This document shows positions 5,061 through 30,518 of a DNA stretch of 64,000 nucleotides, piece by piece (the first letter of the stretch is position 1; the number at the start of each line of letters is the position of its first letter). The stretch is from a candidate division TA06 bacterium (GTDB lineage: Bacteria; Edwardsbacteria; AC1; EtOH8), in the NCBI GenBank assembly GCA_016235665.1, contig JACRJI010000003.1, positions 160,061 through 224,060 of the forward strand, given 5' to 3'. The notes beneath the pieces are model-generated. The model made no database searches and was not told the DNA's origin. It worked only from the letters and a program-made list of their open reading frames with translations. Both the position numbers and the translations under genes were made by a program.

Positions 5061-5166
5061 CCTGATGATTACCAAAACAGCGATAACATGAATGATATCG
5101 CTGGTAATCAACAAGGCTCTTTCGAGCCTCCAATATCAGGCCGCTTGTGCGGCCTTGATGATATCA

Positions 5167-5222: not shown

Positions 5223-5225
5223 TAT

Positions 5226-6207: not shown

Positions 6208-6208
6208 A

Positions 6209-6259
6209 CCCCACCCCATCCCTCCCCTCGAGGGGAGGGAAAGAGGGAGAGGTCAAAGG
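6209..6259 (+). repeat. palindromic intergenic repeat element, family 2, copy A
   Basis: A tccctcccctcGAggggaggga hairpin followed by the tail aagagggagaggtcaaagg. See the other copies at 9369, 12040, 22571, 26831 and 30458. Confidence 0.6.
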
Positions 6260-6264
6260 ATATC

Positions 6265-6969
6265 ATGAAACGCAAGATAGTCCAGATAGACCAGGAAAAA
6301 TGCAACGGCTGCGGAGAATGCATCCCCAACTGCGTGGAGGGCGCGCTGAAGATCGTGGACGGCAAGGCCCGGCTGGTGGGCGACAAATACTGCGACGGGT
6401 TGGGGGCCTGCCTGGGACATTGTCCCCAGGATGCCATCAGGGTGGTGGAGCGCGAGGCCGAGGCCTTCGATGAAAATATCGTAAGGGCGATTCATGAATC
6501 GCCCTTACGGGATAAAACAAATAATTCCCCGGCCTGCGCCTGTCCCGGATCGCAGATCCGGCAGAAACTTCCATCCCCGGCAACTGCAAACGTTACAACT
6601 GTAAACTCTCAACTGGCTCATTGGCCCATCCAACTGCACCTGGTGCCGGTCAACGTCCCGTTCTTCCAGGATGCCGATCTGCTTATCGCCGCCTCCTGCA
6701 CGCCTTTTTCCTACGGGGATTTTCACACCGTGATGCTGGCCGGTAAATCGCTGATAATAGCCTGCCCCAAACTGGACAAGACAGAGCCGTATCTGGAAAA
6801 GCTGACGGAGATATTCCGGCAGAACGACATCAAATCCGTTACCGTGGCCATCATGGAAGTGCCATGCTGCCAGGGTTTGCTGCGGCTGGTGCGCCAGTCG
6901 CTGAAGGACTCGGGGAAGAGAATGTCTATTACTGTAGAAACAATCACCGTAAAAGGCGAAAGGCTATGA
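6265..6969 (+). CDS. 2x[4Fe-4S] ferredoxin-domain protein with C-terminal Cys-containing domain (hcp-associated Fe-S protein)
   Basis: CNGCGECIPNC and CDGLGACLGHCP cluster motifs, a low-complexity linker, and a C-terminal domain with CTPF...CPKL...CCQG. Confidence 0.65.
   Translation: MKRKIVQIDQEKCNGCGECIPNCVEGALKIVDGKARLVGDKYCDGLGACLGHCPQDAIRVVEREAEAFDENIVRAIHESPLRDKTNNSPACACPGSQIRQKLPSPATANVTTVNSQLAHWPIQLHLVPVNVPFFQDADLLIAASCTPFSYGDFHTVMLAGKSLIIACPKLDKTEPYLEKLTEIFRQNDIKSVTVAIMEVPCCQGLLRLVRQSLKDSGKRMSITVETITVKGERL
6480..6509. repeat. 30-bp perfect palindrome CGTAAGGGCGATTCA|TGAATCGCCCTTACG inside the Fe-S protein linker
   Basis: Read directly from the sequence. A related copy lies at 6985-7010. 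Confidence 0.9.
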
Positions 6970-6984
6970 CCCCAACCTTAAAAA

Positions 6985-7010
6985 GTAAGGGCAATTCATG
7001 AATTGCCCCA
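6985..7010. repeat. palindrome GTAAGGGCAATTCATGAATTGCCC (20-bp perfect core), flanked by direct CCCCAACC octamers
   Basis: Lies between the Fe-S protein stop and the rubredoxin RBS. CCCCAACC occurs at 6970-6977 and 7007-7014. Confidence 0.85.
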
Positions 7011-7027
7011 ACCAGAAAGGAACCACC

Positions 7028-7189
7028 ATGAAAAAGTACCGCTGTACTATCTGCGATTACATCTACGATCCGGCCGCCGGTGATCCCGATTCCGGCATTG
7101 CCCCGGGGACCCCGTTCGAGAAGATCCCGGATACCTGGGTCTGCCCGATCTGCCAGGTGGACAAAAGCAACTTTGAACCTTTAGACTAA
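7028..7189 (+). CDS. rubredoxin
   Basis: 53 aa with [11 protein letters not shown] ... WVCPICQ (two CxxC pairs). An RBS GAAAGGAA precedes the ATG at 7028. Confidence 0.85.
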
Positions 7190-7264
7190 ACATGCCACAG
7201 AGACACAGAGATATTATTAAGGATATTTTATGCATAGTGTCTGGGTATTAAAAAGGAGTAAGCG

Positions 7265-7582
7265 ATGATAACCATAGAAACTTTGGATTTCAACACGGCG
7301 GAGAAGGCCTGCAAGGGCGTGTTCAGCCAACCGCAGGCTCTGGTCAACTATCTACATCTCAAGCAGGGCCAGGAAGTGGCCCGTCACCTGGCTAACGCCG
7401 ATATGGTCTACCTGATCGTACTGCAGGGCGAAGGGGTTTTCAACTTTGAGGAAAGGGATCATGTCATGAAACACGGCCAGCTGGCCGCGGTGACGCGGGG
7501 AACGCCGATGCACATAACAAATCGGGAGTCGGAAGACCTAAGTTTCATTGTGATAAAAACGCCCAATCCGGAGAACAAGTGA
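7265..7582 (+). CDS. cupin-domain protein
   Basis: 105 aa small beta-barrel with a cupin-like His/Glu pattern. RBS GGAG. Confidence 0.55.
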   Translation: MITIETLDFNTAEKACKGVFSQPQALVNYLHLKQGQEVARHLANADMVYLIVLQGEGVFNFEERDHVMKHGQLAAVTRGTPMHITNRESEDLSFIVIKTPNPENK

Positions 7583-7601
7583 CATAATTGACAAGATTTA
7601 A

Positions 7602-7641
7602 GCCCCGCCATACTTCGACACAGCTCAGTATCCGGCGGGGC
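7602..7641 (+). promoter_or_regulatory. stable 13-bp stem-loop in the cupin-hcp intergenic region, no U-tract
   Basis: GCCCCGCC-ATACT-[loop 12]-AGTAT-CC-GGCGGGGC. A TTGACA (7588-7593) lies upstream with a weak -10. Confidence 0.4.
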
Positions 7642-7694
7642 ATAAGCGTACGGGAATGAGAAACACAAAATGCCAAAAATAAGAAGGAGATAAA

Positions 7695-9368
7695 ATGACC
7701 ATGTTCTGTCATCAATGCCAGGAGACCGCCGGAAACAAGGGCTGCGCCGGGACCCGGGGCGTCTGCGGCAAGCCCGATCAGGTGGCGGTCCTGCAAGACC
7801 TCCTGATCCACACCCTGAAGGGGATTTCCTATTTCAATGTCAAGGCCAAGGACAGAGGCCAGTGCGATCCCAAAGCCTCGGAGTTCGTGATGGAACAGCT
7901 GTTCGCCACTATCACCAATGTCAATTTTGATCCGGAATATTTCGTCAAGCAAATAGACCGGGCCCGGGAGATCCGCGATCAGCTGAATAACACCGCCACC
8001 AAGGATTCCTCCGGTAAATTACCCGATGCCGCCACCTGGTCCGCCCAGAGCGGTCTGAACGAGTACCTGCTCAAGGGCGCCGGGGTGGGCATTCTGGCCA
8101 CAGCCAACGAGGACGTCCGCTCCCTGCGGTCGCTGATATTGTTCGGCCTCAAGGGTCTGGCGGCCTACACCCATCACGCCTATGTGCTGGATGCCAGGGA
8201 GGACGACATTCTGTTTTTCATGCAGAAGGCCCTGGCCGCCACTCTGGATGACGGCCTATCGGCGGACGAGTTGACAGGTCTGGTGCTTAAGTGCGGTGAG
8301 TACGGGGTAAAGGCCATGGCATTATTGGATAAGGCCAACACTGGCAAGTACGGGCATCCCGAGATCACCAGCGTCAAGCTGGACGTAGGCACCAACCCCG
8401 GGATCTTGATCAGCGGGCACGACCTGAGGGATCTGGAGGAATTATTGGAACAGACCAAGGGCCAGGGAGTGGACGTTTACACCCACGGCGAGATGCTGCC
8501 GGCCAACGCCTATCCGTTCTTCAAGAAGTATGACAACTTCCACGGCAACTACGGCGGCTCCTGGTGGCACCAGAACGAGGAATTTGAGAAGTTCAACGGT
8601 CCGGTGCTGATGACCACCAACTGCCTGGTCCCGCCCAAGGACAGCTACAAGGACCGGGTGTTTACCACCGGAGTGGTGGGCTTTCCGGAGGTCAAACACA
8701 TCGCCGATCGCAAAGAGGGTAAACAGAAGGATTTCTCCGCCGTCATCGCTATGGCCCAAAAGTCCAAGGCCCCGGAGAAACTGGAAGACGGCAATTTGAC
8801 CATCGGATTTGCCCACAACCAGGTGCTGGCCCTGGCTCCCAAGGTGATCGAGGCCGTGAAAAGCGGCGCCATCAAGCGTTTTGTGGTGATGGCCGGCTGC
8901 GACGGCCGGCACAAATCCCGGGAATATTTCACCGACATAGCCAAGGCACTGCCCAAGGATGCTGTCATTCTCACCGCAGGCTGCGCCAAGTACCGCTACA
9001 ACAAGCTGAATCTGGGCGACATCGGTTCGACTGGGCTCACCGGAACCGGGGGCATCCCGCGGGTGCTTGACGCCGGGCAGTGCAATGACAGCTATTCGCT
9101 GGTGCTGATCGCTTTGGCCCTTAAGGACGCTTTTGGCCTGAAGGACGTTAACGAACTGCCGCTTTCCTTCGACATTGCCTGGTACGAGCAGAAGGCGGTG
9201 CTGGTGCTTTTGGCCCTGCTGCATCTGGGGGTGAAGAACATCCACCTGGGGCCGACCCTGCCGGCCTTCGTGTCGCCCAATGTGCTGAAGGTGCTGGTGG
9301 AGAAGTTCAATGTCCAGCCCACGGCGGGGGTGGAGGAGGATATGAAGAAGTTGATGGCTGGACAGTAG
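7695..9368 (+). CDS. hcp: hybrid cluster protein / hydroxylamine reductase
   Basis: 557 aa with N-terminal [24 protein letters not shown] and the conserved Hcp body. RBS AAGGAG 7 nt upstream. TAG stop at 9366-9368. Confidence 0.92.
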
Positions 9369-9406
9369 ACCTCACCCCAACCCTCTCCTGATGAATCAGG
9401 AGAGGG
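9369..9406 (-). repeat. palindromic intergenic repeat element, family 2, copy B (inverted orientation)
   Basis: The rc reads ccctctcctgattcatcaggagaggg + ttggggtgaggtc. It directly abuts the hcp stop codon. Confidence 0.6.
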
Positions 9407-9435
9407 CGGCTGTCTCAGCGAAAAGAGAAAATATA

Positions 9436-9466
9436 AAGCCGTGGCATTATGCCCCGGCTTTTTTAT
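9436..9466. terminator. GCCGTGGC-type hairpin + T-tract (family 1 copy 1), hcp terminator
   Basis: aaagccgtggc-attat-gccccggctttttt, an 11-bp stem with one mismatch. Confidence 0.6.
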
Positions 9467-9501
9467 TGCATAACGGACAGGTTGTGTGTATAATAAATCC
9501 A

Positions 9502-10602
9502 ATGAATAGTAGTTCAGGCCATAGATATCATACAACCATCCTTTGGCTGCGGGAACTTAAAAAGGGCGGCGGAAATTATCTGCCGTACGACCTGCACCTA
9601 CGCCGGGCCGAGGTAAGGGAACTGGTGGGAATGTGGAGCGAAGCCCTGGGAACTTACCGGGATCTGGCAGGCATTACGGAAGGGGCCTCTTTGACAGTAC
9701 TGGCCGCCGCTCAGCTGGTAAACATCGGGAGGGTGCTGTACAAAATGGGCGACCATGCCGAAGCTGAAGAGAATCTGCTAAAAGCAGATGCTATCTTCCA
9801 GCAGCTGGGCGATCTGAAGCAACAGGCTGACGTATGCAATCTCTTGGGCAACATACGCCTGAACCAGACACGCTATCAGGAAGCCAGAATGCTTTTTGAA
9901 CGCCGTTTGGAGCTGAACACAAAAAGCAACGATGCCTCCGGACTTTGCGCCACCTACGGTAACCTGGGTAATTTGGAGTATGTCAGGGGAGATCTTGCCC
10001 TGGCCGAGGAATGGTACCGCCGCCAGGATGAAAATGCCAGAAAAGAAGACAGGAAGGATTTTCAAGCCATAGCCATGGGAGCCATGGGTTGCATCTATGC
10101 GCAAAGAGGCGAATACGACAAGGCCATAAAGTCTTTTAGCAAATTCCTGGATCTGTCAACCGCCATAGGCGACACCGGAAAAATAAGGGTGGCCTATGGA
10201 AACATTGGCAATTATTATGTACAATTTGAAAACTACCCGCTGGCCAGGGACAATTATCGCCGGCAACTTATCCTGGCAAAACGGATGGGGGAAAAGAAGG
10301 GAACCTGTCTGGCGCTTGGGAACCTGGGCAAGGTTAGTTATCACCTGGGGGAGTATGAAAACGCCCTTCGTGAAATCCAGGAAGCAATAATTATCGGTGA
10401 AAAGCTGGGTCTCAAGTATTTTCTTCCAGAGCAGTACCTTCTGCTGGCTGAAATTCAGATGGCCTTAAATAACCTGTCCGAAGCAGAACGGGCAGCCGCC
10501 AGGTCGCATCAATTAGCAGAAGAAAACGGTGATGCAGACGACGAAAAAAGCGCCAAAGAATTGCAAGAACGCATATCAAAGACCAAGGCCGTAGTAAGGT
10601 AA
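9502..10602 (+). CDS. tetratricopeptide-repeat protein
   Basis: Multiple 34-aa TPR units (LGN..Y..G.Y..A...Y). Start is set downstream of the hcp terminator. A promoter-like TTGCAT-N17-TATAAT with TGTG extension lies at 9466-9494, and the ATG sits at the predicted TSS (possibly leaderless). Confidence 0.6.
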   Translation: MNSSSGHRYHTTILWLRELKKGGGNYLPYDLHLRRAEVRELVGMWSEALGTYRDLAGITEGASLTVLAAAQLVNIGRVLYKMGDHAEAEENLLKADAIFQQLGDLKQQADVCNLLGNIRLNQTRYQEARMLFERRLELNTKSNDASGLCATYGNLGNLEYVRGDLALAEEWYRRQDENARKEDRKDFQAIAMGAMGCIYAQRGEYDKAIKSFSKFLDLSTAIGDTGKIRVAYGNIGNYYVQFENYPLARDNYRRQLILAKRMGEKKGTCLALGNLGKVSYHLGEYENALREIQEAIIIGEKLGLKYFLPEQYLLLAEIQMALNNLSEAERAAARSHQLAEENGDADDEKSAKELQERISKTKAVVR

Positions 10603-10642
10603 GGTGAAGAACTGTCTTAGATAAATTGGCCGTCTAAAAATA

Positions 10643-10673
10643 AAAAGCCGTGGCGTTATGCCACGGCTTTTTA
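10643..10673. terminator. GCCGTGGC-type perfect hairpin flanked by A/T tracts (family 1 copy 2), bidirectional terminator
   Basis: aaaaagccgtggc-gttat-gccacggcttttt, between the convergent TPR and OmpA genes. Confidence 0.7.
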
Positions 10674-10700
10674 TTTTCAACTATATTCAACCGACCCGTA

Positions 10701-11537
10701 TTACTGCTTGACCAATTCCACCCGGCGGTTCTTGGCCCTTCCCTCCTCCGTATCATTGGAAGTGACCGGCGAAAGGGAGGCCACCCCGTGGGGGCTCAAT
10801 CGGGCAGCGGCTATGCCGTATTTGCCGGTCAGCGACTTGACCACGGCATCTGCCCGGTCCAGCGACAGCTTGAGGTTGGAGTCAAGGGAGCCGACGTTGT
10901 CGGTGTGGCCGACCACGTACAGTTTAAGCGTTGGGTTGTTCTGAAGAAGCTTGGCGATCTCCGAGATGGCGGCGTCGGATTCGGGCTTGATCTCGGACTT
11001 GCCGGTATCAAAGTATATGCCGTAAACCGAAACATGGCCGGTAGCATTGATGCCGTTGCCCAGGGCCTCGGCATTGGCCACCATCTCCTGCTCCATGGCC
11101 TGCTTCTCGACGATGGTCAGCCGGTACCAGTTATTGAACGACGAAACCCCGACCCACGTCTCCCGGCCGTCCTTTTTAAGCACAATGGTGGAGGCCCGGT
11201 TGAAATTGTCGTCGAAGATCACCTTTCCCCCGATCTTTTTCAGGGCCTCCTGAATGTTCCTCCGGATCTTCAACTCTCCGGATTCCGGCAATCCCTTGTC
11301 CAGGCGGTATTCGATATAGTACTTGTGGCCCTCGATGACAACCGTCTTCTTGTCCTGGCCAATGAATTTATGGCTGTCGAATTCGGTGTCCTTGTAGTCC
11401 GAAATGTGGAATCCGGGCATCCGTGACAGCAGGGGATGGTCCTTGCCTCCGGTTACATCCGGATCGGCGGCCTGGGAAAGGCCGAAACTAGCCAGCACTA
11501 AGAACAGGCTGAAGATGAGAGCTATTGATCTTTTCAT
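10701..11537 (-). CDS. OmpA-family protein (C-terminal OmpA/peptidoglycan-binding domain)
   Basis: Signal peptide, and a C-terminal block YVVGHTDNVGSLDSNLKLSLDRADAVVKSL...GRAKNRRVELV typical of OmpA_C. Confidence 0.75.
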   Translation of the reverse strand: MKRSIALIFSLFLVLASFGLSQAADPDVTGGKDHPLLSRMPGFHISDYKDTEFDSHKFIGQDKKTVVIEGHKYYIEYRLDKGLPESGELKIRRNIQEALKKIGGKVIFDDNFNRASTIVLKKDGRETWVGVSSFNNWYRLTIVEKQAMEQEMVANAEALGNGINATGHVSVYGIYFDTGKSEIKPESDAAISEIAKLLQNNPTLKLYVVGHTDNVGSLDSNLKLSLDRADAVVKSLTGKYGIAAARLSPHGVASLSPVTSNDTEEGRAKNRRVELVKQ

Positions 11538-11558
11538 GTTACCTCTAAAATTAAGGAT

Positions 11559-11915
11559 TTATAGATTCTCAATTATTTCAAATGACGCATGTGATTCTAT
11601 CCATTCTCCCCGCTTACGGTCCTTCCATGCTTTTTCTTTAGGTATAAAATCACAGAGTTCCAGATGAACCGGCCCATCGGTGGTCCATGTTTGCCCTTCG
11701 TATCTAATCTCCATAATCAAAATGTCTCCGGTAATATTTTTCCCAGTTATCGGGAAATCTAATTTTACCACAAAAGCATCTTCTCCATTTTGCCCCGGTA
11801 TAGTTTTAATCACCTTTCCGGTTCGGGCTTTATTTGGGGGTTCTTTAAGAAATGTAGGGTCGTAGTCGTAACCACCTTTAAACCTGATCGTATCACCGAC
11901 GACAAGCTTTTTCAT
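11559..11915 (-). CDS. hypothetical protein, low-GC orphan
   Basis: 118 aa with no recognisable motif. Local GC is ~42% against ~60% in flanking DNA. It has its own consensus promoter. Confidence 0.45.
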   Translation of the reverse strand: MKKLVVGDTIRFKGGYDYDPTFLKEPPNKARTGKVIKTIPGQNGEDAFVVKLDFPITGKNITGDILIMEIRYEGQTWTTDGPVHLELCDFIPKEKAWKDRKRGEWIESHASFEIIENL

Positions 11916-11960
11916 TTCAGCTCATTATTTAACGGTTACTTCTCTTCTTTCGTAAAGTTT

Positions 11961-11989
11961 ATTATATATTACAAACATTTCATTGTCAA
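11961..11989 (-). promoter_or_regulatory. perfect-consensus sigma70 promoter TTGACA-N17-TATAAT on the minus strand
   Basis: The rc of 11961-11989 reads TTGACAatgaaatgtttgtaataTATAAT, about 45 nt upstream of the ATG at 11915. Confidence 0.6.
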
Positions 11990-12004
11990 ATGAAATGACG
12001 AAAA

Positions 12005-12036
12005 AAGAAGCCGTGGCATTTTGCCACGGCTTATTG
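12005..12036. terminator. GCCGTGGC-type hairpin (family 1 copy 3)
   Basis: gaagccgtggc-atttt-gccacggctt, lying downstream of the minus-strand msrAB gene. Confidence 0.6.
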
Positions 12037-12039
12037 CTT

Positions 12040-12079
12040 CCCTTCCCTTGTGGGGAAGGGATTGAGGGTTGGGTCAAAA
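12040..12079 (+). repeat. palindromic intergenic repeat element, family 2, copy C
   Basis: cccttccc-ttgtg-gggaaggg + attgagggttgggtcaaaac. The tail overlaps the msrAB stop codon. Confidence 0.55.
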
Positions 12080-13114
12080 CAGTCTCTTGTACTCTCCGTA
12101 ACCCTCCTTGTCCAGATCCTCCGCCGGGATGAACCTCAGCGAAGCAGAATTGATGCAGTAACGCAGGCCGGTGGGCTGGGGGCCGTCATCGAACACATGG
12201 CCCAGGTGGGCGTCGCCGGCCTGGCTGCGCACTTCGGTCCTTACCCGGCCGAAACTGGAATCCTTCTTCTCCAAAACCAGGCTTGTCTCCAAGGGCTTGG
12301 TAAAGCTGGGCCAGCCGCATTCAGAATCGAACTTGTCCTTTGAGCTGAACAGGGGCTGGCCGGTGGTGATGTCCACGTAGATGCCGTCGCGCTTCTCGTT
12401 CCAGTACTTGTTGGCAAAGGGCGGCTCGGTGGCGCTCTTCTGGGTCACCTGGTATTCCAGGGACGAGAGCTTTTTCTTTAGCTCCTTGTCGCTGGGTTTT
12501 GTATAGGTCTTGACGGCGGGGGAATCCTTCCAGATCTTCTTTAGCGCCGCCTCGCGGCCGGACATCACCTTGTAGGTGCTGTAACGGGCCGGGCATTTCT
12601 GGTAATACTTCTGGTGGTATTCCTCGGCCGGATAGAAGTTCTTGTAGGCCAGAATGGCCGTGGCTATTGGTTCTTTGAACTTGCCCGAGTTCTGCAGGGC
12701 TGTCTTGGATGCTTCGGCCAGTTTCTTCTGCTCTTCGTTTTGATAGAAAATGGCGGTCTGGTACTGGGGTCCCTTGTCGGCGAACTGCCCGGTAAGGTCG
12801 GTGGGGTCTATCTGCCGCCAGAAGTGGTCCAGCAACTGGGCGTAACCGATCTTGGCCGGGTCGTAAGTGATGCGCACCGCCTCGTAGTGCCCGGTCTCGC
12901 CGGAGCAGACGTCCCGGTAGCTGGGGTCCTTCATGTGGCCGCCGGAATAGCCGGGCATCACTTCTATCACACCGGGCAGGGAGTCAAAGGGGTGTTCCAG
13001 GCACCAGAAACAGCCTCCGGCGAAGATGGCGGTCTCGGTCTTATTGCCGGTGTCGGCGTCAATCATAGCCAGTCCTCCCGCCAGCAAGAGCAGAGCCAGG
13101 TAAATATATCTCAT
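12074..13114 (-). CDS. msrAB: bifunctional peptide-methionine (S)-S-oxide reductase MsrA / (R)-S-oxide reductase MsrB, secreted
   Basis: Signal peptide; the MsrA active site GCFWC; a C-terminal MsrB domain (CGWPSF ... RYCINSASL). Confidence 0.88.
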
Positions 13115-13205
13115 TCATGTTTCCTCCTTCATATATCAATGTAACCATGAAAAGGGGCAAAGTCAAGGGGTGAGGCAATGGGTAAATTTATGTCTGTAGT
13201 AACAT

Positions 13206-13235
13206 TAAAAAGGCTCTTTTAAAAGAGCCTTTTTA
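13206..13235. terminator. perfect 14-bp palindrome AAAAAGGCTCTTTT|AAAAGAGCCTTTTT
   Basis: Lies just downstream of the ABC ATPase stop on the minus strand. Confidence 0.7.
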
Positions 13236-13238
13236 AAT

Positions 13239-13961
13239 CTAAGCGCAGCCTTCATCCGGTTTGCAGGCCTGGGCCCCGGTATAGATCATCCCGTCCCGCA
13301 GTTCCACCGAGCGGTGGGCCATCTGGGCCAGGTTGGGGTTGTGGGTCACCAGGATCACGGTCAGGCCCTCCCATTTGTTGAGCTCCCCCAGCAGCACCCC
13401 GATCTCACTGCTTCTCCGGGTATCCAGGTTGCCTGTGGGCTCGTCGGCCAGCAGGATCCTTGGCTTGTTGACCAGGGCCCGGGCGATGGCCACCCGCTGC
13501 ATCTCTCCGCCTGAGATCTGCCCCGGCAGGTGATGTTTGCGGTGGTCAATGCCCAGCATCTTCAGGATCTCGTCCACCCCTTTTTCGGCACCGGGCTTCT
13601 TGTAAAAGGTGAAGGGCAGCACCACGTTCTCCAGCACGGTCAGGGTAGGGATCAGATAGAACTTCTGGAACACGTAGCCGAACAAGTCGCGCCTTATCCT
13701 GGTCAGATCGGCCTCGGACAGGGTCCTGCCCTCGGTGAAGATGTCGCGGCCGTCCACTCGCAGGCGCCCGGAGCTGGGGTTGTCCAGGCAGCCCAGGATG
13801 TTGATCAGCGTGGTCTTGCCGCTGCCCGAGGGCCCGACAAAGGAGATGAACTCGCCTTGGCTGATGTTGAGCGAAACGCCGTTGACGGCCGGGATCTCCT
13901 CGCTGCCGCGGCGGTAGATCTTTTTCAGATCGTGGGCTTCGATGGAAAATTTATCTGTCAT
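13239..13961 (-). CDS. ABC transporter ATP-binding protein (MacB/LolD-type)
   Basis: Walker A GPSGSGKTT, signature LSGGEMQRVAIARAL, Walker B ILLADEPT. Confidence 0.88.
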   Translation of the reverse strand: MTDKFSIEAHDLKKIYRRGSEEIPAVNGVSLNISQGEFISFVGPSGSGKTTLINILGCLDNPSSGRLRVDGRDIFTEGRTLSEADLTRIRRDLFGYVFQKFYLIPTLTVLENVVLPFTFYKKPGAEKGVDEILKMLGIDHRKHHLPGQISGGEMQRVAIARALVNKPRILLADEPTGNLDTRRSSEIGVLLGELNKWEGLTVILVTHNPNLAQMAHRSVELRDGMIYTGAQACKPDEGCA

Positions 13962-13974
13962 GCTTCTTCCTTGA

Positions 13975-15192: not shown

Positions 15193-15295
15193 CGCGAGGA
15201 AGGCTTCCGATATTTAACGACGAAGCGATCTGACAAGGCCCGGTTGATTGCTTCGTTAGTGCAGGAGGAATAGTCGGACTCGCAAAGACGACCGC

Positions 15296-15961: not shown

Positions 15962-15965
15962 CCCT

Positions 15966-16385: not shown

Positions 16386-16416
16386 TTTGAGCCTCCTTGA
16401 TTATAAATTCTGGCGA

Positions 16417-19571: not shown

Positions 19572-19725
19572 CGGGGCTTACCACAAAGGCACAAAGACAC
19601 AAATAACTTTTGATTTCTTTACATACCATAAATAGACCAAAACACTAGAGTGTAAACCAGATATTATTAAAGACGTATTTTTAGTGCCTTTGTGTCTTAG
19701 TGGTTAAGTTAAAAAGGGAATAAAT

Positions 19726-20568: not shown

Positions 20569-20701
20569 ACCGGGGCCCTTATGGGACGAGGATTTTCGCA
20601 GATCGATCTCAAAATATCACACTTATTTTTCCAACTGGTCCCGTAGCACGAACCAACAGGAGGTCATTAAAATGAGAAGACACTTTTAGGCCATCGCGGC
20701 C

Positions 20702-22561: not shown

Positions 22562-22570
22562 TTTATAACC

Positions 22571-22632
22571 GAACTCATCCCCAGCCGCCCCTTCTCTTAA
22601 AAAGAGAAGGGGATCAAGGGGTTGAGTTCAAG
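22571..22632 (+). repeat. palindromic intergenic repeat element, family 2, copy D (extended ~60-nt imperfect palindrome)
   Basis: gaactcatcccc ... ccccttctctt-aaaaa-agagaagggg-atcaaggggttgagttcaag. Confidence 0.65.
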
Positions 22633-22674
22633 ATAAGTCCTTTGAAAGTTAGCGTCTAACCAAGAATTTTACCT

Positions 22675-24387: not shown

Positions 24388-24418
24388 GCCGGGCACTTCG
24401 ACAAGGCTTCGGCAAGCT

Positions 24419-24739
24419 TTGGAGCATTCCCCTGGCAGTTATTATACCGGGAGCACAAAGGATCTGGCAAAAAGGTTAAATGAGCACGACAATCTTCTTG
24501 GTGCAAACTATACAAAGAAGAAACATCCGGTTCGGTTGGTTTATTACGAAGAGTATCCAAGAATTGACACTGCTTTTTATCGGGAAAAACAGGTTCAAGG
24601 CTGGAACCATGCCAAGAAGAAAGCATTGATTGAGGGGAAAAAGAATAAACTGCCGTTGTTGGCTAAAAATTATACGCAGTTTGGGAAGTATGAAGAGCCG
24701 GTTGTTTCGACAAGCTCAACAACCGGAGATGATGTCTGA
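24419..24739 (+). CDS. GIY-YIG nuclease-family small protein, N-terminally truncated or TTG-initiated, low GC
   Basis: YYTGSTKDLAKRLNEHD ... VRLVYYEEY ... REKQVQGW matches the GIY-YIG core, but the usual YVYIL N-terminal strand is missing. GC is ~43%. Confidence 0.55.
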   Translation: MEHSPGSYYTGSTKDLAKRLNEHDNLLGANYTKKKHPVRLVYYEEYPRIDTAFYREKQVQGWNHAKKKALIEGKKNKLPLLAKNYTQFGKYEEPVVSTSSTTGDDV

Positions 24740-24844
24740 GTCTTGTTTGTTGGTGGCTGAGCCTGGTTCGTCGGTGGCCGAGCCTGTCGAAGCCACCGCA
24801 CTCATGTAAATAGAATTATAAATTAAATAAACTCGGAGAGCTTC

Positions 24845-25528
24845 ATGTTCCACACTTTCGCCAAGGGCTCCGTCTGGGGCCTGATCCTGGGCTACGACGT
24901 ATTCACCAACCTGATCATGTTCTCGCTGGTCTACCTCTCGGTCTATTCCTGGTCGGTGATAATATACAAGCATCGCTATTTCAAGAAAATAAAACAGGCC
25001 AACAAGAAGTTCATGGAATCCTTCCGCCGGCGCAAGACCTTCAACGACCCCTTCAAGTCCGCCAACCCCGATTCCGCCAGCTTCTCCGTGCTGGCCGAGG
25101 GCCTGGCCGAGGCCCACCGCCTTTCCGGCGGCGAGCAGGTCTCCTTTCCGCTGGAGGTGCTGCCCAACATCCAGGCGGCCATGGAGCGGTCCATCGGCCA
25201 GCAGGAGGAGGACCTTTCCGGCAAGCTGATCTCGCTGGCCTCCATCACCAGCATCTCCCCGCTGCTGGGCCTGCTGGGAACGGTCTGGGGCATCATGATC
25301 GCCTTTGTGGACATCAAAAATTTCGGGTCGTCAAGCATTCAGGTGGTGGCCCCGGGGATAGCCGAGGCCCTGGTGACCACCATCGCCGGGCTGGTGGTGG
25401 CCATCCCGGCCTCCATGGCCTACAACGCCTTCAACACCAACATCCGCCAGATGACGCTGGAGATGGAGAACCTGTCCTCGGAATTTTTGGGCGACCTGAG
25501 GATGCACTCGGTCTACGGAGGAAAGTAA
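24845..25528 (+). CDS. tolQ: MotA/TolQ/ExbB proton-channel protein (TolQ by context)
   Basis: 3 TM helices and the conserved C-terminal TM2-TM3 hairpin. Confidence 0.8.
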   Translation: MFHTFAKGSVWGLILGYDVFTNLIMFSLVYLSVYSWSVIIYKHRYFKKIKQANKKFMESFRRRKTFNDPFKSANPDSASFSVLAEGLAEAHRLSGGEQVSFPLEVLPNIQAAMERSIGQQEEDLSGKLISLASITSISPLLGLLGTVWGIMIAFVDIKNFGSSSIQVVAPGIAEALVTTIAGLVVAIPASMAYNAFNTNIRQMTLEMENLSSEFLGDLRMHSVYGGK

Positions 25529-25529
25529 G

Positions 25530-25937
25530 ATGCGGCGCCCGCGCACCGGCCTGCAGCCCATGGCTGCCATCAACATGACCAATCTGATCGACGTCTGCAT
25601 GGTGCTGCTGATAACCTTTATGATCACCGCCCCCATGATGCGCTCCGGGGTGGACGTGGCCTTGCCCAAGTCGTCGTCCACCAAGCCCCAGGAGGAGGAG
25701 GGCCTGACCATCACTTTGACCTCGGGCGGCAAGATCGTCGTCTCCAACCAGACCGTGTCCCAAAGCGCTTTTCCCAAGGTCATTAGCGGCCTGCTGGCGG
25801 CCAACCCCGGCCAGCCGGTCTACCTGAAGGCCGACAAGACCGTGCCCTACGGGCTGGTGGTGGAGGTGATCGGGCAGCTGAAGGAGCTGAAGGTCACCAA
25901 CCTGGGCTTGGTGACAGAACCCAAGCTGGGGAAATAG
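25530..25937 (+). CDS. tolR: ExbD/TolR biopolymer transport protein
   Basis: INMTNLIDVCMVLLITFM TM helix plus a periplasmic domain. TAG stop. Confidence 0.8.
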   Translation: MRRPRTGLQPMAAINMTNLIDVCMVLLITFMITAPMMRSGVDVALPKSSSTKPQEEEGLTITLTSGGKIVVSNQTVSQSAFPKVISGLLAANPGQPVYLKADKTVPYGLVVEVIGQLKELKVTNLGLVTEPKLGK

Positions 25938-25946
25938 GGCACTATC

Positions 25947-25975
25947 CGCAGATTACGCAGATTTACGCAGATTTA
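25947..25975. repeat. three tandem copies of CGCAGATT(T)A, period 9-10 bp
   Basis: cgcagatta cgcagattta cgcagattta, lying immediately after the tolR stop. Confidence 0.85.
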
Positions 25976-26038
25976 TTCTTTAATGGAAAACATTAATGGA
26001 ATCACGGGAACACAAATAAGACAATAGAATATTTTGTT

Positions 26039-26809
26039 TTGAACGCAGATATTAAAAGATATCAATTATTCGGCTGGGATTACGAGCATTTCAGCCCGTT
26101 GAATGAAAATGAGGTCAATTGGTATAAGAACTATGCCCGCAAGGCCGGAGGCCCAATTTTGGAGTTGGCCTGCGGCACTGGCCGTCTGTTAACCAAGTTG
26201 GCTGAAAATGGTTTTGATGTTACCGGGATCGATCTCTCCGACAAAATGATTGAGGTGGCTGGCAACAACATAGGAAAACTGCCAAAGGAAATAAGGAATA
26301 GGATCAAGCTTGTCAAAGGCGACATAAGGGATTTTGGCATGGAACAAAAATTCGGGCTAATAGTTGTCGCTGATAATTCTTTTCGCGAGCTTCGCACCAG
26401 GGAAGATCAAACAACTTGTTTAAAAACCGTCCTCAAGCATTTATCGCCCAAAGGTGCATTTTTACTGACTGTCAGGCGTTTTGATCTTTCAAGTTATACT
26501 GATAGCACAAGAGAAATTCCCTGGTCAAAACCGATCAGTGATCCTTCAAATAGTCATAAAGTATCACGAAAGGTGAAGTTTACATTATCGGATGACAAAA
26601 GGCGGGTAAATGGGATCTACATTTATAGGATAGTCGATTCGCAGGGCACAACGCGGTTTGAGGAATGTCCCTTTGTTTCTCCGGTTTTGCAGGAAGAAGA
26701 TTATTTTGCACTTTTAACAGAAGCAGGTTTTAAGCCGGAATTGTTTTATGATTTTAACGATCAGAAAAACAACACTGGTCAGACTCTTTGCTTTGTGTGT
26801 GGTAAATGA
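26039..26809 (+). CDS. class I SAM-dependent methyltransferase, low-GC insertion in the tol-pal operon
   Basis: Motif I LELACGTGR. TTG start with no obvious RBS. GC is ~43% against ~60% in tolR/tolA. Confidence 0.7.
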   Translation: MNADIKRYQLFGWDYEHFSPLNENEVNWYKNYARKAGGPILELACGTGRLLTKLAENGFDVTGIDLSDKMIEVAGNNIGKLPKEIRNRIKLVKGDIRDFGMEQKFGLIVVADNSFRELRTREDQTTCLKTVLKHLSPKGAFLLTVRRFDLSSYTDSTREIPWSKPISDPSNSHKVSRKVKFTLSDDKRRVNGIYIYRIVDSQGTTRFEECPFVSPVLQEEDYFALLTEAGFKPELFYDFNDQKNNTGQTLCFVCGK

Positions 26810-26830
26810 GAATTATGTAAAATGGAACCG

Positions 26831-26884
26831 GACCGATCCCCTTCCCTCTCCTAAAGCATTAGGAGAGGGAAGGGTGAGGTCAAA
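26831..26884 (+). repeat. palindromic intergenic repeat element, family 2, copy E
   Basis: gaccgatcccc ... ccccttccctctcct-aaagcatt-aggagagggaaggg + tgaggtcaaaag. Confidence 0.65.
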
Positions 26885-26891
26885 AGTATAC

Positions 26892-27530
26892 ATGAAAAAA
26901 GCCTTCGTCATATCATTCTTCATCCACCTGGCATTTTTGCTGGGCATCTTCGGCGCTTCCTACATCCTTAAAGCGTCGGCCAAGCCCATCTATCCCCAGA
27001 TCTACCAGGTCAGCCTGGTCTCATTGCCGGCCGCGGTGTCCGAGGGTTCCGAGGAATCAGGAGCCAGGGAAATGGTGGGACCGCAGCTACCGGATGACAA
27101 GGCCATGAAAGAACCTTCGGCCAAAAAGGAAAAGCCCAAGGCTGACAAGAAAGCCAAAGACACCACAAAGGCCAAAGCAGCATCCCCAAAATCCAATACC
27201 ACCGGGCTGGCCAAGGGCATGAAGATACTGTCCTCAGAGGGTGGCGTACCGTCAGACAACTATTACTTGGCGCTGATCCTGTCCAAGATCAGCCAGAACT
27301 GGAACAACCCCTACCAGGGAAAAAGGGAAACGGTACGGGCCCAGGTCTATTTTAGGATAGACAAGAACGGGAAACTGCAGGAGGTGAAGATCGAGAACTC
27401 CTCCGGGGACGCCATCTTCGACCAGTCGGCTCTGCGGGCGGTGTACGAGGCCAAAGTGTTTCCGCCGCTACCCGAGGAGATGAAACTGGCCACCTTGGGG
27501 GTGCATTTTGAGTTTGAGTACGTGAAGTGA
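26892..27530 (+). CDS. tolA: TolA-like protein (N-terminal TM anchor, Lys/Ala-rich linker, TonB_C-like C-terminal domain)
   Basis: MKKAFVISFFIHLAFLLGIFG anchor, a KEKPKADKKAKDTTKAKAA linker, a C-terminal domain, and its position between tolR and tolB. Confidence 0.6.
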   Translation: MKKAFVISFFIHLAFLLGIFGASYILKASAKPIYPQIYQVSLVSLPAAVSEGSEESGAREMVGPQLPDDKAMKEPSAKKEKPKADKKAKDTTKAKAASPKSNTTGLAKGMKILSSEGGVPSDNYYLALILSKISQNWNNPYQGKRETVRAQVYFRIDKNGKLQEVKIENSSGDAIFDQSALRAVYEAKVFPPLPEEMKLATLGVHFEFEYVK

Positions 27531-27570
27531 CCGCCCGCGAAACACGCGAAAGAAGAGACACCATTTATAT

Positions 27571-28863
27571 ATGAAAACGAAAATTCTTCTCCTTTTCCTG
27601 ACACCATTGATAATCTGCCAGAGTGCATTTGGCCAGGCCGACGTCTATCTGAAACTTTCCACCTCGGAGCGGCGGCAGCTGGAGTTGGGCATCGCGCCTT
27701 TGCAGACCCTGGATACCAAAGCTTCTCCCGATGCCGCGTTTAACGCCCAGAAGATGCTGGACATCATCGGCGACGACCTGGCCTTTTCCCTGTACTTCAA
27801 GATGGTCTACCCGCCGTCATTGCTGGAAGGCTACGGGCTGAAGAAGGGCCAGCTGGACATCGGGGCCTGGCAGATGCTGGGGGCCAGGCAGGTGCTGATC
27901 CCGGAGCTGAAACAGGAGAAGAAGAAGGTCATTCTTAAACTCTCGGTCTTCGACCTTGGCATCCAGCGCCAGGTATTCAGCAAGGCCATCGAGCCGGACG
28001 GCTCAAGGGCCACGGCCCACGCCGCCAGCGACCAGATCATCAAGAACCTGAGCGGCGAGAACGGCGTCTCCTCCACCAAGATAGCCTTCAGCCTGAAAAG
28101 CGGAAAGAACAAGGAACTGATGCTGGCCGATTACGACGGCGGCGGGTTCAGGGCCCTCACCAACTTCAACTCCATCAACATCTCACCCGACTGGCAGCCG
28201 GGCGGCGGGGCGCTGGCCTTCGTCTCCTTCTACCGCAACCGTACCGACATTGTTTCCCTGAACCTGGCCAGCGGCAAAACGGCCATCATCTCCCAGACCG
28301 AGGGGCTTAACACCTCTCCGGCCTGGTCCCCGGACGGAAAGTCCCTGGCTCTTACATTGTCCAAGGACGGCAACGCCGAGATCTACCTGCTGTCGCCGGA
28401 AACCAAGGAACTGCGCCGCCTCACCAATACCTGGGCCATAGACTGCTCGCCGGCCTGGTCGCCCAACGGGCGGGAACTGGTCTTCAATTCCGACCGGCCC
28501 GGCTCGCCCCAACTTTATATCATGGACACGGAAGGGGCTAACATCCGGCGGCTGACCTACCAGGGCGGCTACAACACCTCTCCCAGCTGGTCTCCCCGGG
28601 GCGACAAGATCGCTTTCGTCTCCCGGATCGACGGGAAATTCCAGGTCTGCACCATAGACATCACCGGGGACAACTTCGCCCAGCTGACCTACGAGGGCGA
28701 CAACGAGGACCCCAGCTGGTCGCCGGACGGCCTGCACCTGTGCTTCTCCTCCAGCCGCACCGGCAGTCACCAGGTCTGGCGGATGCACTGGGACGGCAGC
28801 GCCCAGCAGGCCATCACCAACAACGGCGGCTCGTACATGCCTGCCTGGGGCCCGGCCCAGTAA
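27571..28863 (+). CDS. tolB: Tol-Pal system beta-propeller protein TolB
   Basis: Signal peptide, an N-terminal TolB domain, and repeated ...SP.WSPDG... propeller blades. Confidence 0.88.
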   Translation: MKTKILLLFLTPLIICQSAFGQADVYLKLSTSERRQLELGIAPLQTLDTKASPDAAFNAQKMLDIIGDDLAFSLYFKMVYPPSLLEGYGLKKGQLDIGAWQMLGARQVLIPELKQEKKKVILKLSVFDLGIQRQVFSKAIEPDGSRATAHAASDQIIKNLSGENGVSSTKIAFSLKSGKNKELMLADYDGGGFRALTNFNSINISPDWQPGGGALAFVSFYRNRTDIVSLNLASGKTAIISQTEGLNTSPAWSPDGKSLALTLSKDGNAEIYLLSPETKELRRLTNTWAIDCSPAWSPNGRELVFNSDRPGSPQLYIMDTEGANIRRLTYQGGYNTSPSWSPRGDKIAFVSRIDGKFQVCTIDITGDNFAQLTYEGDNEDPSWSPDGLHLCFSSSRTGSHQVWRMHWDGSAQQAITNNGGSYMPAWGPAQ

Positions 28864-28961
28864 GGCGTTTCCGGTTGAATAAATAAGTGATTTAGTATAT
28901 AATCAAGGCTGACCTTTTTTGGGCACCAATAATCAGTTCAAAATTAAATCTGAGGAAATCA

Positions 28962-29468
28962 ATGAACAAATATTTTACCGTAATTGCGATGTGCCTGATC
29001 CTGGCGCTTGGTTTTGGCTGTACCAAAAAGCAGACCGTGAAACAGGAAGAACCCATCAAACAACCGGAGGTGGCTATTCAAACACCGCCTGTGGCCACCC
29101 CGCCGGCCGAGGCCCAGCCGGTGGTTCCTAAGATAGAATTCAAGACGATATTCTTCGCCTTTGATTCCTATTCCCTGAACGAAGAGGGCAAGGCTTTGCT
29201 TAACCAGGCCGGCGGCCTGCTGCGCAGTTATCCCGATGTCGCCCTGCGGCTGGAAGGCCACTGCGACGAGCGGGGCACGGCCGAATATAACCTGGCCCTG
29301 GGCGAAAAGCGGGCCAACGCCGTCCGGGAGTACCTGGAGAACCTGGGCGTCAGCCGCTCCCGGCTGTCCACCGTCAGCTTCGGCAAGGAAAAACCCGCCG
29401 TAGCAGGCAACGATGAAGCCAGCTGGGCCAAGAACCGCAGGGTGGAGATCGTTCCGGCAGCCAAATAG
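28962..29468 (+). CDS. pal: peptidoglycan-associated lipoprotein Pal
   Basis: Lipobox LGFGC and the OmpA_C domain (FAFDSYSL...LEGHCDERGTAEYNLALGEKRA...NRRVEIV). Confidence 0.88.
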   Translation: MNKYFTVIAMCLILALGFGCTKKQTVKQEEPIKQPEVAIQTPPVATPPAEAQPVVPKIEFKTIFFAFDSYSLNEEGKALLNQAGGLLRSYPDVALRLEGHCDERGTAEYNLALGEKRANAVREYLENLGVSRSRLSTVSFGKEKPAVAGNDEASWAKNRRVEIVPAAK

Positions 29469-29587
29469 TATTTCCCGGGAAGGACAGGATTTACATGATC
29501 GACAGGATCACTTAAAATACCGGGAACCACGAAGGCCAACAAACCTTTGACAATTTTATCTTACAACAATAATTTCAAAAATACATC

Positions 29588-30298
29588 ATGAAAAAAACAT
29601 TGCTCTTGGTCTCACTATCCCTGGCTGTCTTCATGGGCTGCGGGATGAAGAAGGAATACATCCGGGTCACCGATCAGCTGGATTCCATCGAAGTGCGGGA
29701 GAAGAAGATCGACCGCCGGACCGCGGTGATGGACAGCCTGATCCAGGTGCAGATGGGGATGATCTACGAACTGCGGGCCGAGCTTAAAAGCCTTTCCTCC
29801 ACCGCCGGGGAGAAGTGGAGCATAGCCGAGCAGCAGCAGGAGGACAACAAGTACCGCCCCCTGCCCATCGGCCCCAGTCAGCCGGACCCCAAGGGGCCGG
29901 CCCCGGAGCCGAAAGCTGAAGTTCCCGCCGAGACCAACCCCAAGAAACTTTACGATGCTTCGTATCTGGACATCACCAAGGGCAACTACGACCTGGCTTT
30001 GGCCGGGTTCAACGAGTTCATCAAGCGGTTCCCCAAGCACGACCTGGCCGACAACGCCCAGTACTGGATCGGCGAAGGGTATTACGCCCAGAAGAAGTAT
30101 GAGCCGGCTTTGACCGAGTTCGAAAAAGTGGTGGGAAACTATCCGGGCAAGGACAAGGAACCGGCCGCGCTTTACAAGATGGGCCTGTGCCTCCAGGAGA
30201 TGGGCGACAAGGCCAAGGCCCGGCAATACTGGCAGCTGCTGGTTAAAAAATACCCCAAAAGCCCCGAAGCCGCCCTGGCCAAGGACAAGCTGAAATAA
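29588..30298 (+). CDS. ybgF: Tol-Pal system protein YbgF/CpoB (coiled coil + TPR)
   Basis: N-terminal coiled coil, C-terminal TPR block (YWIGEGYYAQKKYEPALTEF...), and its position after pal. Confidence 0.75.
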   Translation: MKKTLLLVSLSLAVFMGCGMKKEYIRVTDQLDSIEVREKKIDRRTAVMDSLIQVQMGMIYELRAELKSLSSTAGEKWSIAEQQQEDNKYRPLPIGPSQPDPKGPAPEPKAEVPAETNPKKLYDASYLDITKGNYDLALAGFNEFIKRFPKHDLADNAQYWIGEGYYAQKKYEPALTEFEKVVGNYPGKDKEPAALYKMGLCLQEMGDKAKARQYWQLLVKKYPKSPEAALAKDKLK

Positions 30299-30329
30299 AG
30301 GTTCTCCCGGGAAATGTAGAAATCAATGA

Positions 30330-30364
30330 AAAAGGCCCTTCCCTTTGGGAAGAGGCCTTTTTGC
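30330..30364. terminator. rho-independent terminator of the tol-pal operon
   Basis: aaaaaggcccttccc-ttt-gggaagaggccttttt. Confidence 0.65.
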
Positions 30365-30457
30365 ATCATTTTTTTGTTGACTTTGAAATATGGCGGGGTT
30401 AAACTTATAAGTTATGGTAAAACGGTTCAACAAACCGTTTTAAGTTCTATAAGCTGT

Positions 30458-30518
30458 AAACTCAACCCCTATATCCCCTTCTCTTTTAAAGAGAAGGGGA
30501 CGGGGGATGAGTTCAAAC
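30458..30518 (+). repeat. palindromic intergenic repeat element, family 2, copy F (extended imperfect palindrome)
   Basis: aaactcaacccc ... ccccttctctt-ttaa-agagaagggg-acgggggatgagttcaaac. Confidence 0.65.

Follow-up and report, generated by a model that had tools for sequence, protein, structure and literature searches.

Six hairpin elements in a genome segment of an Edwardsbacteria relative as probable gene-less members of a widespread DUF559 cassette family

Small palindromic repeats are common in bacterial genomes, and most of them have no known origin. We analyzed 64,000 nucleotides of contig JACRJI010000003.1 (positions 160,061 to 224,060 of the forward strand; hereafter, the window) from a candidate division TA06 bacterium, a relative of Candidatus Edwardsbacteria according to TolB and its neighbours. 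The window contains six short hairpin elements, A to F, which an original prediction made from the sequence alone had described as a dispersed family of the repetitive extragenic palindrome (REP) or miniature inverted-repeat transposable element (MITE) type. A dispersed family of small palindromes of that type is indeed what we found. The family exists far beyond this organism and crosses phyla, and it is tightly associated with genes for the DUF559 domain (PF04480). DUF559 cassettes and solitary hairpins lie in-frame within host genes, and copies come, go or swap among close relatives. We consider it probable that the six window elements are solitary, gene-less and non-autonomous members or derivatives of this widespread DUF559 cassette family, and we infer that DUF559 mobilises them.

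An exhaustive scan of the window for perfect hairpins having only C/T in the 5′ arm and only A/G in the 3′ arm returned six, thereby confirming every predicted copy: A (6219-6240), B (9381-9406), C (12039-12061), D (22588-22612), E (26839-26874), and F (30474-30500). From A to F, stem lengths were 11, 9, 9, 11, 14, and 13 bp and loop lengths 0, 8, 5, 3, 8, and 1. The sole further match was a trivial 7-bp hairpin at 13214. Among the 18 perfect hairpins of the window with stems of at least 9 bp, six had a pyrimidine 5′ arm and none had a purine 5′ arm, and no pyrimidine-first hairpin appeared in 100 first-order Markov simulations. Copies A, D, E, and F are nested palindromes, in which the hairpin lies inside an outer inverted repeat of the type (T)TGAACTCAnCCCC...GGGGnTGAG(G/T)TCAA; the complete pair of outer arms is CCTCAnCCCC/GGGGnTGAGG. 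Copies B and C are half elements consisting of the hairpin and a single outer arm. The elements measure 38 to 61 nt, and all six lie in spacers or overlap stop codons. The upstream mirror of the tail that had been noted for D, E, and F is real and is also present, in degenerate form, in A. Copies D and F, called nearly identical, are so in their paired segments; their spacers, loop, and central N.N mismatch differ, and overall identity is 48/63 (76%). The tail taken as conserved is exact in D and F only, and the motif by itself is weak evidence (11 window matches with at most 2 mismatches, compared with 5.9 expected, or about twice the level in shuffles), so the evidence lies in the architecture of the whole element. 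When folded as RNA, D, E, and F reached -37.9, -37.8, and -36.3 kcal/mol (z -7.7, -6.4, and -7.6), and folding was weaker for A (-29 kcal/mol, z -2.4), B (-23.8, z -3.6), and C (-17, z -3.0).

We trained a covariance model on D, F, and ten copies from other genomes and scored the whole 64 kb with filters off. As members of the training set, D and F scored 76 and 75.7 bits. From outside that set, the model recovered A (35.6 bits, E 2e-7, on the minus strand, and 29.4 bits on the plus strand) and E (23.4 bits, E 5e-4); the score of C (16.7 bits, E 0.04) was marginal, and that of B (10.2 bits, E 2.7) fell short of significance. There was no seventh copy in the 64 kb. The copy number, predicted as at least six, is thus exactly six at this sensitivity.

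The link to DUF559 came from loci of other genomes (designated by L numbers). A degraded DUF559 gene was met among the open reading frames (ORFs) between paired copies in the Ignavibacteriales locus L116. In the ∼1.03 Mb fetched by the hairpin pattern, DUF559-type genes were present in L010, L116, and L119 (motif scan) and in L073 (ORF clustering); PF04480 was confirmed by Pfam for all four, and all four directly adjoin elements. We also fetched 80 metagenomic loci by DUF559 alignment alone, which are the best matches to queries found next to elements and favor one DUF559 subfamily. Within 200 bp of DUF559, these loci contained 129 pyrimidine-first perfect hairpins in 31 kb, versus 61 in the other 330 kb, that is, 4.15/kb versus 0.18/kb, a 22-fold difference (Poisson p 5e-123). 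At least one such hairpin lay within 200 bp in 64/80 loci, and both sides were flanked in 43/80. In 26 of the 43 two-sided loci the flanking loops were reverse complements, showing that the flanking copies are inverted. Arm order was strict, with 109 pyrimidine-first and 0 purine-first hairpins near DUF559, and pyrimidine-first hairpins made up 68% of all perfect hairpins near the gene versus 12% farther off.

Loci L140, L137, L174, L160, and L205 read CCTCAnCCCC, spacer, hairpin, DUF559, hairpin, spacer, GGGGnTGAGG, which is a nested palindrome like those of the window, split by a DUF559 gene. In L116, the series TTGAACTCATCCCC..CCCCCTTCTCTT..AAGAGAAGGGGG..GGGGTTGAGTTC stands on both sides of the gene, and these flanks carry the same arms and stem as window copies D and F. 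The covariance model built from solitary copies matched the flanks of ∼15/80 DUF559 genes. The DUF559 frames were intact in 78/80 loci, and the signature DF..ExDGxxH was kept in 77/80. A DUF559 profile matched Protein Data Bank (PDB) entries 3hrl (E 2e-25) and 3r3p, the homing endonuclease I-Bth0305I (E 6e-5), and the domain is a Vsr-like PD-(D/E)XK endonuclease domain with an E-D-H-D catalytic signature.

DUF559 genes were also found by a protein search of a plasmid collection, in which some records are chromosomes labelled as plasmids; the hosts were Pseudanabaena, Picosynechococcus, Synechocystis, Deinococcus, Sphingomonas, Azospirillum, Neisseria, and E. coli. In most of them, pyrimidine/purine hairpins of the same kind lie next to the gene, and such hairpins were read in cultured Pseudanabaena, Deinococcus, Sphingomonas, Azospirillum, and Synechocystis and at ycjD of E. 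coli. On a plasmid of Sphingomonas parapaucimobilis (L212 1442-1872), a DUF559 gene lies between sufB and sufC and is bracketed by 10-bp CCCCTCCCCT/AGGGGAGGGG hairpins whose G-rich/C-rich arms point inward, the reverse of the usual layout. In E. coli K-12 MG1655 (L217 3041-3420), ycjD, which encodes a DUF559 protein, is followed by two half elements in the ycjD-fabI spacer (CCCTCACCCCAACCCTCTCCC..GAGCGAGGGGG and CCCCTCGCCCCTCTGGGGAGAGGGTTAGGGTGAGGGGA, the second half element reading ...GGGAGAGGGTTAGGGTGAGGGGA), and the arms and hairpin style of these repeats are the same as those of the window elements. This spacer is presumably where the E. coli "Box C" repeats were first described, a name and history that reportedly go back to Bergler in 1992 and Bachellier in 1999; to our knowledge, a link of Box C to ycjD has not been reported. 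Our literature searches for the element sequence, for DUF559/PF04480/COG2852, and for Box C returned nothing describing these elements or their link to DUF559.

In 44/80 loci, DUF559 lay within an open frame of 400 to 1,332 codons. By Pfam, the hosts of in-frame DUF559 included leucyl-tRNA synthetase (LeuRS, at more than one insertion position), isoleucyl-tRNA synthetase (IleRS), MetH, an IcmF-like mutase, RecG, and HsdR. Eight in-frame host-DUF559 fusions showed host domains plus PF04480 and no Hint or intein family in Pfam. In L140 (Ga0154020_10003120, 2077-5436), a 1,119-residue LeuRS reads through hairpin, DUF559, and hairpin, and holds in addition two in-frame solitary half elements, translated as SPLLGRGAMGEA and SPLERAGGEV. 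The closely related LeuRS of L137 lacks exactly the 30 nt (10 codons) of one of these half elements, which makes a filled/empty pair with no duplication beyond a common CCC. Likewise, in a Myxococcales metagenome-assembled genome (L119 2979-7982), a 1,667-residue ORF for a helicase/methylase-type restriction enzyme contains an in-frame DUF559 cassette as well as several in-frame solitary hairpins (motifs SPSPIGRGGQGGEV and GEGDLGGEV). A side observation concerns the LeuRS ORF of L135 (2176-5601), which carries a NUDIX domain (residues 542-657) besides its DUF559 insert; this may be another domain inserted in-frame.

Units with two hairpins and no gene were present in L149 (2102-2162) and L198 (2040-2135, 3125-3215, and 3530-3615), laid out as arm, hairpin, short spacer, hairpin, and arm. 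Together with the nested palindromes and the half elements, they form a graded series of the kind that internal deletion produces.

The elements had been thought specific to this genome, which did not hold. We searched a representative collection with one genome per species for a strict both-arm pattern derived from D and F (CTCANCCCC, 15-45 nt, GGGGNTGAGKTCAA) and obtained at least 120 stretches versus ∼17 expected by estimate; the matches listed span at least six phyla. About one-third of the distinct strict-pattern matches listed enclosed a perfect pyrimidine/purine inner hairpin, with an inner stem nearly constant across phyla, CCCC(C)T(T)CTC(C/T)(T). Hosts of the inner hairpin were Ignavibacteria, Melioribacter, Zixibacteria, Bacteroidota (Hymenobacter and Saprospiraceae), Chloroflexota, Spirochaetota, Caldithrix, and, among Cyanobacteria, Anabaena azotica and Leptolyngbyaceae. 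The outermost pair covaries, ACCTCA occurring with TGAGGT and AACTCA with TGAGTT; a G or a T in the right arm goes with a C or an A, respectively, in the left flank, so that pairing extends into these positions. In Anaerolineales, the same outer arms enclose a different interior, in dozens of copies. With the covariance model, many more copies appeared in the fetched related loci, often several within 1-2 kb. Viral contigs gave 0 pattern matches, hence no sign of carriage by phages.

Hairpin modules also occur within larger repeats. In Anabaena azotica (L096, L066, L083, L057, L064, L029, and L108) and Leptolyngbyaceae (L087 and L062), a ∼150-190-bp MITE bounded by terminal repeats TTAACGTGAGTTCGA includes two modules of the pyrimidine/purine hairpin, and its ends have GTGAGTTCGA in common with the GTGAGTTCAA arm of the window elements. 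Zixibacteria (L084, L118, L093, and L094) have a ∼270-bp repeat with terminal repeats GGTTCT(T/A)CTCCAA and a hairpin element in its middle; the copy at L084 1757-1847 bears a 23-nt insertion in the hairpin loop. These larger cyanobacterial and zixibacterial MITEs have unrelated terminal repeats. Elsewhere, L051 (5229-5770) carries four hairpin elements in tandem units of ∼157 bp directly after a terminator.

Insertion polymorphism, proposed originally as a check, was evident when the window was compared with contigs of relatives at 95, 91, 84, and 74% TolB identity. The site upstream of tolA is occupied by an E-type copy in the window and L124 and by an A-type copy in L126, and L127 lacks a copy there. 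The A-type copy of L126 (95% TolB identity) equals window copy A at 41/42 positions although it occupies a different locus, and the same variant is thus found at different loci in sister genomes. The tolA-tolB spacer contains an A-type copy in L128 and L124 and is empty in the window and L126, and the orthologous spacer of the D site is empty in L124. Filled, empty, and swapped sites among relatives indicate a rapid gain, loss, or replacement of copies. The same regions differ in their genes: a GIY-YIG nuclease gene between recN and exbB in L124 (7636-7983) is absent from the window, and a methyltransferase gene between exbD and tolA in the window (26039-26809) is absent from L124.

We read the arm-hairpin-DUF559-hairpin-arm cassette as the autonomous form and the two-hairpin, one-hairpin, and half forms as its putative internal-deletion derivatives. 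The DUF559 nuclease would cut at or near elements, and repair of the break by copying or recombination from another copy would spread, replace, or delete copies. Such a mechanism would be homing-like rather than cut-and-paste. Repair of a break from another copy would explain both the different variants at one site and the lack of target-site duplication. The window copies themselves are probably passive; cotranscribed as strong RNA hairpins, they may have an incidental effect on mRNA stability or translation.

A broader proposal, to which we give somewhat less than even weight, is that the hairpins are the ends and miniature derivatives of an undescribed class of selfish elements with a DUF559 core, which colonises intergenic DNA and essential genes (those for LeuRS, IleRS, MetH, RecG, and HsdR) with neither an intron nor an intein. 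Insertion into essential genes would be tolerated because the arms are stop-free and read as flexible linkers of Pro/Ser/Leu and then Gly/Glu/Arg. If this were true, the strict pyrimidine-first order would be a design rule of the element, and whalefall-1 (an RNA family discussed below) and possibly E. coli Box C would be relics of a DUF559 selfish element. As to the cause of this order, we can offer guesses: the order may matter because the arms are stop-free by composition and can be read as linkers, or because the Shine-Dalgarno-like purine arm comes out in the RNA only once the partner that masks it is there.

In any case, one family of repeats gains a concrete partner gene whose role can be tested. 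The DUF559 domain, a domain of unknown function, is very widespread and present even in E. coli K-12 as ycjD, and the link would explain the odd low-complexity ends of DUF559 proteins. It would also explain why these proteins were flagged among predicted targets of programmed inversion, where they are enriched with an odds ratio of 14.3 (PMC9881135), an enrichment that fits genes bracketed by inverted repeats. The fusions suggest a way for a nuclease gene to persist in essential proteins without splicing machinery, and the results suggest that hairpin-DUF559 cassettes are a little-described kind of selfish DNA. For annotation, the hairpins are a source of falsely extended ORFs and of broken contigs in assembled metagenomes. 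In the window organism, the spacers marked by the elements, among them the one upstream of tolA, evolve fast.

Several observations weigh against a derivation of the window elements from DUF559 cassettes. There was no DUF559 gene in the window or in ∼50 kb from the closest relatives, including a reading of L126-L128, so the link to the window organism is by sequence family only. Since the 80 loci are best matches to element-adjacent queries, the 80% with a nearby hairpin describes that subfamily and not all PF04480 proteins, and the examples from cultured organisms are few and were read by hand. The strict outer-arm motif was found in only 15/80 DUF559 loci per side; arms vary more than hairpin chemistry. 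Layouts differ as well, the flanking copies being direct in L116 and L073 and the arms pointing inward on the Sphingomonas plasmid. No target-site duplication was detected at D or F or at the cassettes in L137, L140, and L205. The window copies are rather diverged, as the 76% identity of D and F shows, which fits poorly with very recent bursts. Finally, the copy E site upstream of tolA is occupied in three of four genomes, which could mean host use.

The main rival to derivation takes the window copies for targets: the hairpins would be a preexisting repeat, host-derived or otherwise mobilised, DUF559 a homing passenger, and the window copies unoccupied target sites. DUF559 does sit exactly between the halves of a window-type palindrome, and homing enzymes are known among the Vsr-like nucleases (PMC3239194). 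A gene that simply inserted into a loop would not, however, end up with a hairpin duplicated on both of its sides, as seen in 43/80 loci. The complete palindromes that stand beside, and not around, the DUF559 genes of L010 and L116, and the use of the hairpin as a module in the unrelated larger MITEs of Cyanobacteria and Zixibacteria, also suit preexisting targets; the graded gene-less forms are the outcome expected of internal deletion and speak for derivatives. On balance we judge the target view unlikely, and the two views are not mutually exclusive.

We find still less probable that the elements are RNA structures selected by the host for mRNA-end stability, cistron separation, or the tuning of translation, for example of tolA, and that their spread is secondary. 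All six copies do lie in transcribed spacers or untranslated regions, and their hairpins are very stable; nevertheless, no window copy is followed by a T-run, a terminator scan called 0/6 copies as intrinsic terminators, and orientation relative to flanking genes was nearly random over ∼90 related sites, with no bias among (-,-) 17, (+,+) 16, divergent 13, and convergent 8. This agrees with the original prediction that the elements occur in either orientation and are not simply ribosome-binding-site or promoter context. Copies B and C, each between a stop codon and a separate canonical terminator, and the judgment of whalefall-1 as a likely RNA (PMC2864571) are in keeping with a host function; the same hairpin unit is nonetheless found in-frame inside coding regions, and the near-identity of sequence across phyla is hard to derive from local regulatory needs. 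At the tolA site, the element ends 7-14 nt upstream of the ATG (8, 7, and 14 nt from TCAA in the three element-bearing sites, those of the window, L124, and L126) and places GAGG ∼12 nt upstream of the start, yet the site is empty in L127 and carries a different variant in L126.

Some specific functions were considered and rejected. The tail sequence GGGGGUGA can pair with the anti-Shine-Dalgarno sequence, but its spacing to start codons is long and variable; GAGG stands ∼12 nt upstream of the ATG at both A and E, and the gene at copy A has a closer AAGGA. Such pairing is possibly a side effect. A terminator on the opposite strand was suggested by an A-run to the left (a U-run on the reverse strand), which is present in many copies of other phyla and in none of the window copies. 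Nor are the elements stop-free in all six frames: window copies have 1-4/6 open frames, no more than shuffles or random segments, and the arms themselves are stop-free because of their composition. The idea that the arms could form a triplex (H-DNA) found no support, because an intramolecular triplex needs a mirror repeat and the arms are an inverted repeat; within one arm, a short stretch of mirror symmetry is no surprise when only two letters occur.

That these are REP or REPIN (REP doublet forming hairpin) elements mobilised by a REP-associated tyrosine transposase (RAYT) encoded elsewhere in the genome, as suggested originally, appears highly improbable. The elements resemble REPs and REPINs in being short palindromes that are dispersed and mainly extragenic, with some copies inside genes (PMC3733652), and one small nuclease-type gene is bracketed by the repeat while solitary copies far outnumber gene-bearing ones, as with RAYT. 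The defining mark of REPs is an unpaired GTAG or CGTC tag (PMC3733652), and neither tag is present at either end of any window copy, the ends being (T)TGAAC/TAGAC and GTTCAA/GGTCAA. All-against-all comparison of 1,870 ORFs around ∼90 related sites revealed no recurrent transposase-like ORF within 2.5 kb of elements, only generic families; the gene that recurs is DUF559, a PD-(D/E)XK Vsr-like protein and not an HUH tyrosine transposase. In further contrast to REPs and REPINs, the arms are strictly pyrimidine and then purine, nearly the same sequence occurs across phyla, and the gene-bearing DUF559 units are often translated in-frame in host proteins. Chance matches or generic GC-rich terminator composition, which the original prediction named as what could refute it, can be dismissed: the tail motif alone is indeed only about twice as frequent as in shuffles, but six pyrimidine-first hairpins stand against 0 in the 100 simulations, A and E were recovered independently by the covariance model, there are hundreds of homologous copies elsewhere, and no copy has a T-run or a terminator call.

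Comparison with other known systems helps to place the DUF559 cassettes. Rickettsia palindromic elements (RPEs), which are in-frame MITEs (PMC10969869), likewise keep the frame upon insertion into coding sequence and add a peptide to the host protein. RPEs are ∼150 bp long, restricted to Rickettsia, and without a known enzyme, whereas the present units are 30-65 nt, cross-phylum, and linked to DUF559; the window copies, unlike RPEs, are not themselves intragenic. The EDxHD/Vsr-like homing endonucleases such as I-Bth0305I (PMC3239194; PMC3424549) share the catalytic domain (match to 3r3p, with E, D, H, and D kept), and the proteins that host DUF559 are typical intein hosts, namely, tRNA synthetases, RecG, restriction subunits, and B12 enzymes. 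Unlike homing genes of introns and inteins, however, DUF559 comes with no intron and, by Pfam, no Hint/intein splicing domain, and the hairpin repeats on its two sides read as linkers of Pro/Ser/Leu and then Gly/Glu/Arg. With MITEs the elements have in common terminal inverted repeats shared with a longer DUF559-bearing element, in other genomes, and presence/absence polymorphism at orthologous sites; a target-site duplication, the remaining hallmark, was not seen.

Rfam gave no gathering-level match in the window or in 18 related loci. In a relaxed search, whalefall-1 (RF01762) matched copy A with 27.1 bits, compared with a gathering threshold of 37, and the other matches were generic microRNA-precursor hairpins; copies other than A had no whalefall-1 match at E <= 10, and matches in other genomes were also below threshold. 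The whalefall-1 consensus comprises GUAUCuCuCCUuGGGGaGaGA, a 24-nt insert, and AGgGuGAGGAC, with a CUCUCC/GGAGAG hairpin followed by a AGGGUGAGG arm. It thus resembles the window elements in having a pyrimidine/purine hairpin and then the same AGGGUGAGG arm, and its two stem-loops resemble the gene-less two-hairpin units. All reports of whalefall-1 come from whale-fall metagenomes, in which it was described as a likely RNA and candidate small RNA of unknown function (PMC2864571), and it may be a lineage-specific instance of the hairpin family.

The individual copies occupy a 5′ untranslated region (E), intercistronic spacers (A, D, and F), and 3′ untranslated regions (B and C). Copy A (6204-6257, no strand assigned) consists of a degenerate outer arm TTGAACCCCACCCC, the hairpin TCCCTCCCCTC/GAGGGGAGGGA, and the outer arm GGGAGAGGTCAAA; it lies between the genes for an Rrf2-family regulator (stop at 6207) and an Fe-S protein (ATG at 6265), ending 8 nt upstream of the start codon of the latter. 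Copy D (22571-22631, plus strand) is a complete nested palindrome, GAACTCATCCCC, spacer, CCCCTTCTCTT AAA AAGAGAAGGGG, spacer, GGGGTTGAGTTCAA, in the spacer between the gene for a Big_5 protein and recN, 43 nt upstream of the recN ATG. Copy E (26831-26883, plus strand), also a nested palindrome, has a 14-bp stem CCCTTCCCTCTCCT/AGGAGAGGGAAGGG merging into the arm GGGTGAGGTCAA, and ends 8 nt upstream of the ATG (26892) of a tolA/TonB-like gene. Copy F (30458-30516, plus strand) is again complete, reading AAACTCAACCCC, spacer, (T)CCCCTTCTCTT(T) T (A)AAGAGAAGGGG(A), spacer, GGGGATGAGTTCAA; it is situated between ybgF, which encodes a tetratricopeptide repeat (TPR) protein, and glmM, ∼60 nt upstream of the glmM ATG.

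The half elements B and C had been described as abutting the hcp stop and overlapping the msrAB stop, respectively; both stop codons in fact fall inside the element, within the terminal T(A/T)GAC. Copy B (9366-9406, minus strand) has the outer arm TAGACCTCACCCC, the hairpin CCCTCTCCT/AGGAGAGGG, and a degenerate far arm, and the hcp stop TAG (9366-9368) is inside TAGACCTCACCCC. Since a pyrimidine-first hairpin reads pyrimidine-first on both strands, arm order is no evidence that B is inverted, and only the position of its outer arm is. A separate terminator follows at 9437-9462. Copy C (12039-12077, plus strand) comprises the hairpin TCCCTTCCC/GGGAAGGGA and the outer arm GGGTTGGGTCAA, which supplies the stop TGA of the minus-strand gene msrAB as the complement of 12074-12076; the copy sits between this stop and a terminator at 12008-12032.

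Two further kinds of palindrome were noticed in the window. Three intrinsic terminators (9437-9462, 10637-10677, and 12000-12040) have the sequence AAGCCGTGGCA(N3-4)TGCCACGGCTT in common, and the arms of the one at 10637-10677 are perfect over 18 bp, with A- and T-runs on either side; judging by their sequences, they look like a second small repeat family, of terminator hairpins. A perfect 32-nt palindrome, TTAAAAAGGCTCTTTTAAAAGAGCCTTTTTAA, at 13205-13236 between two minus-strand genes is probably a bidirectional terminator.

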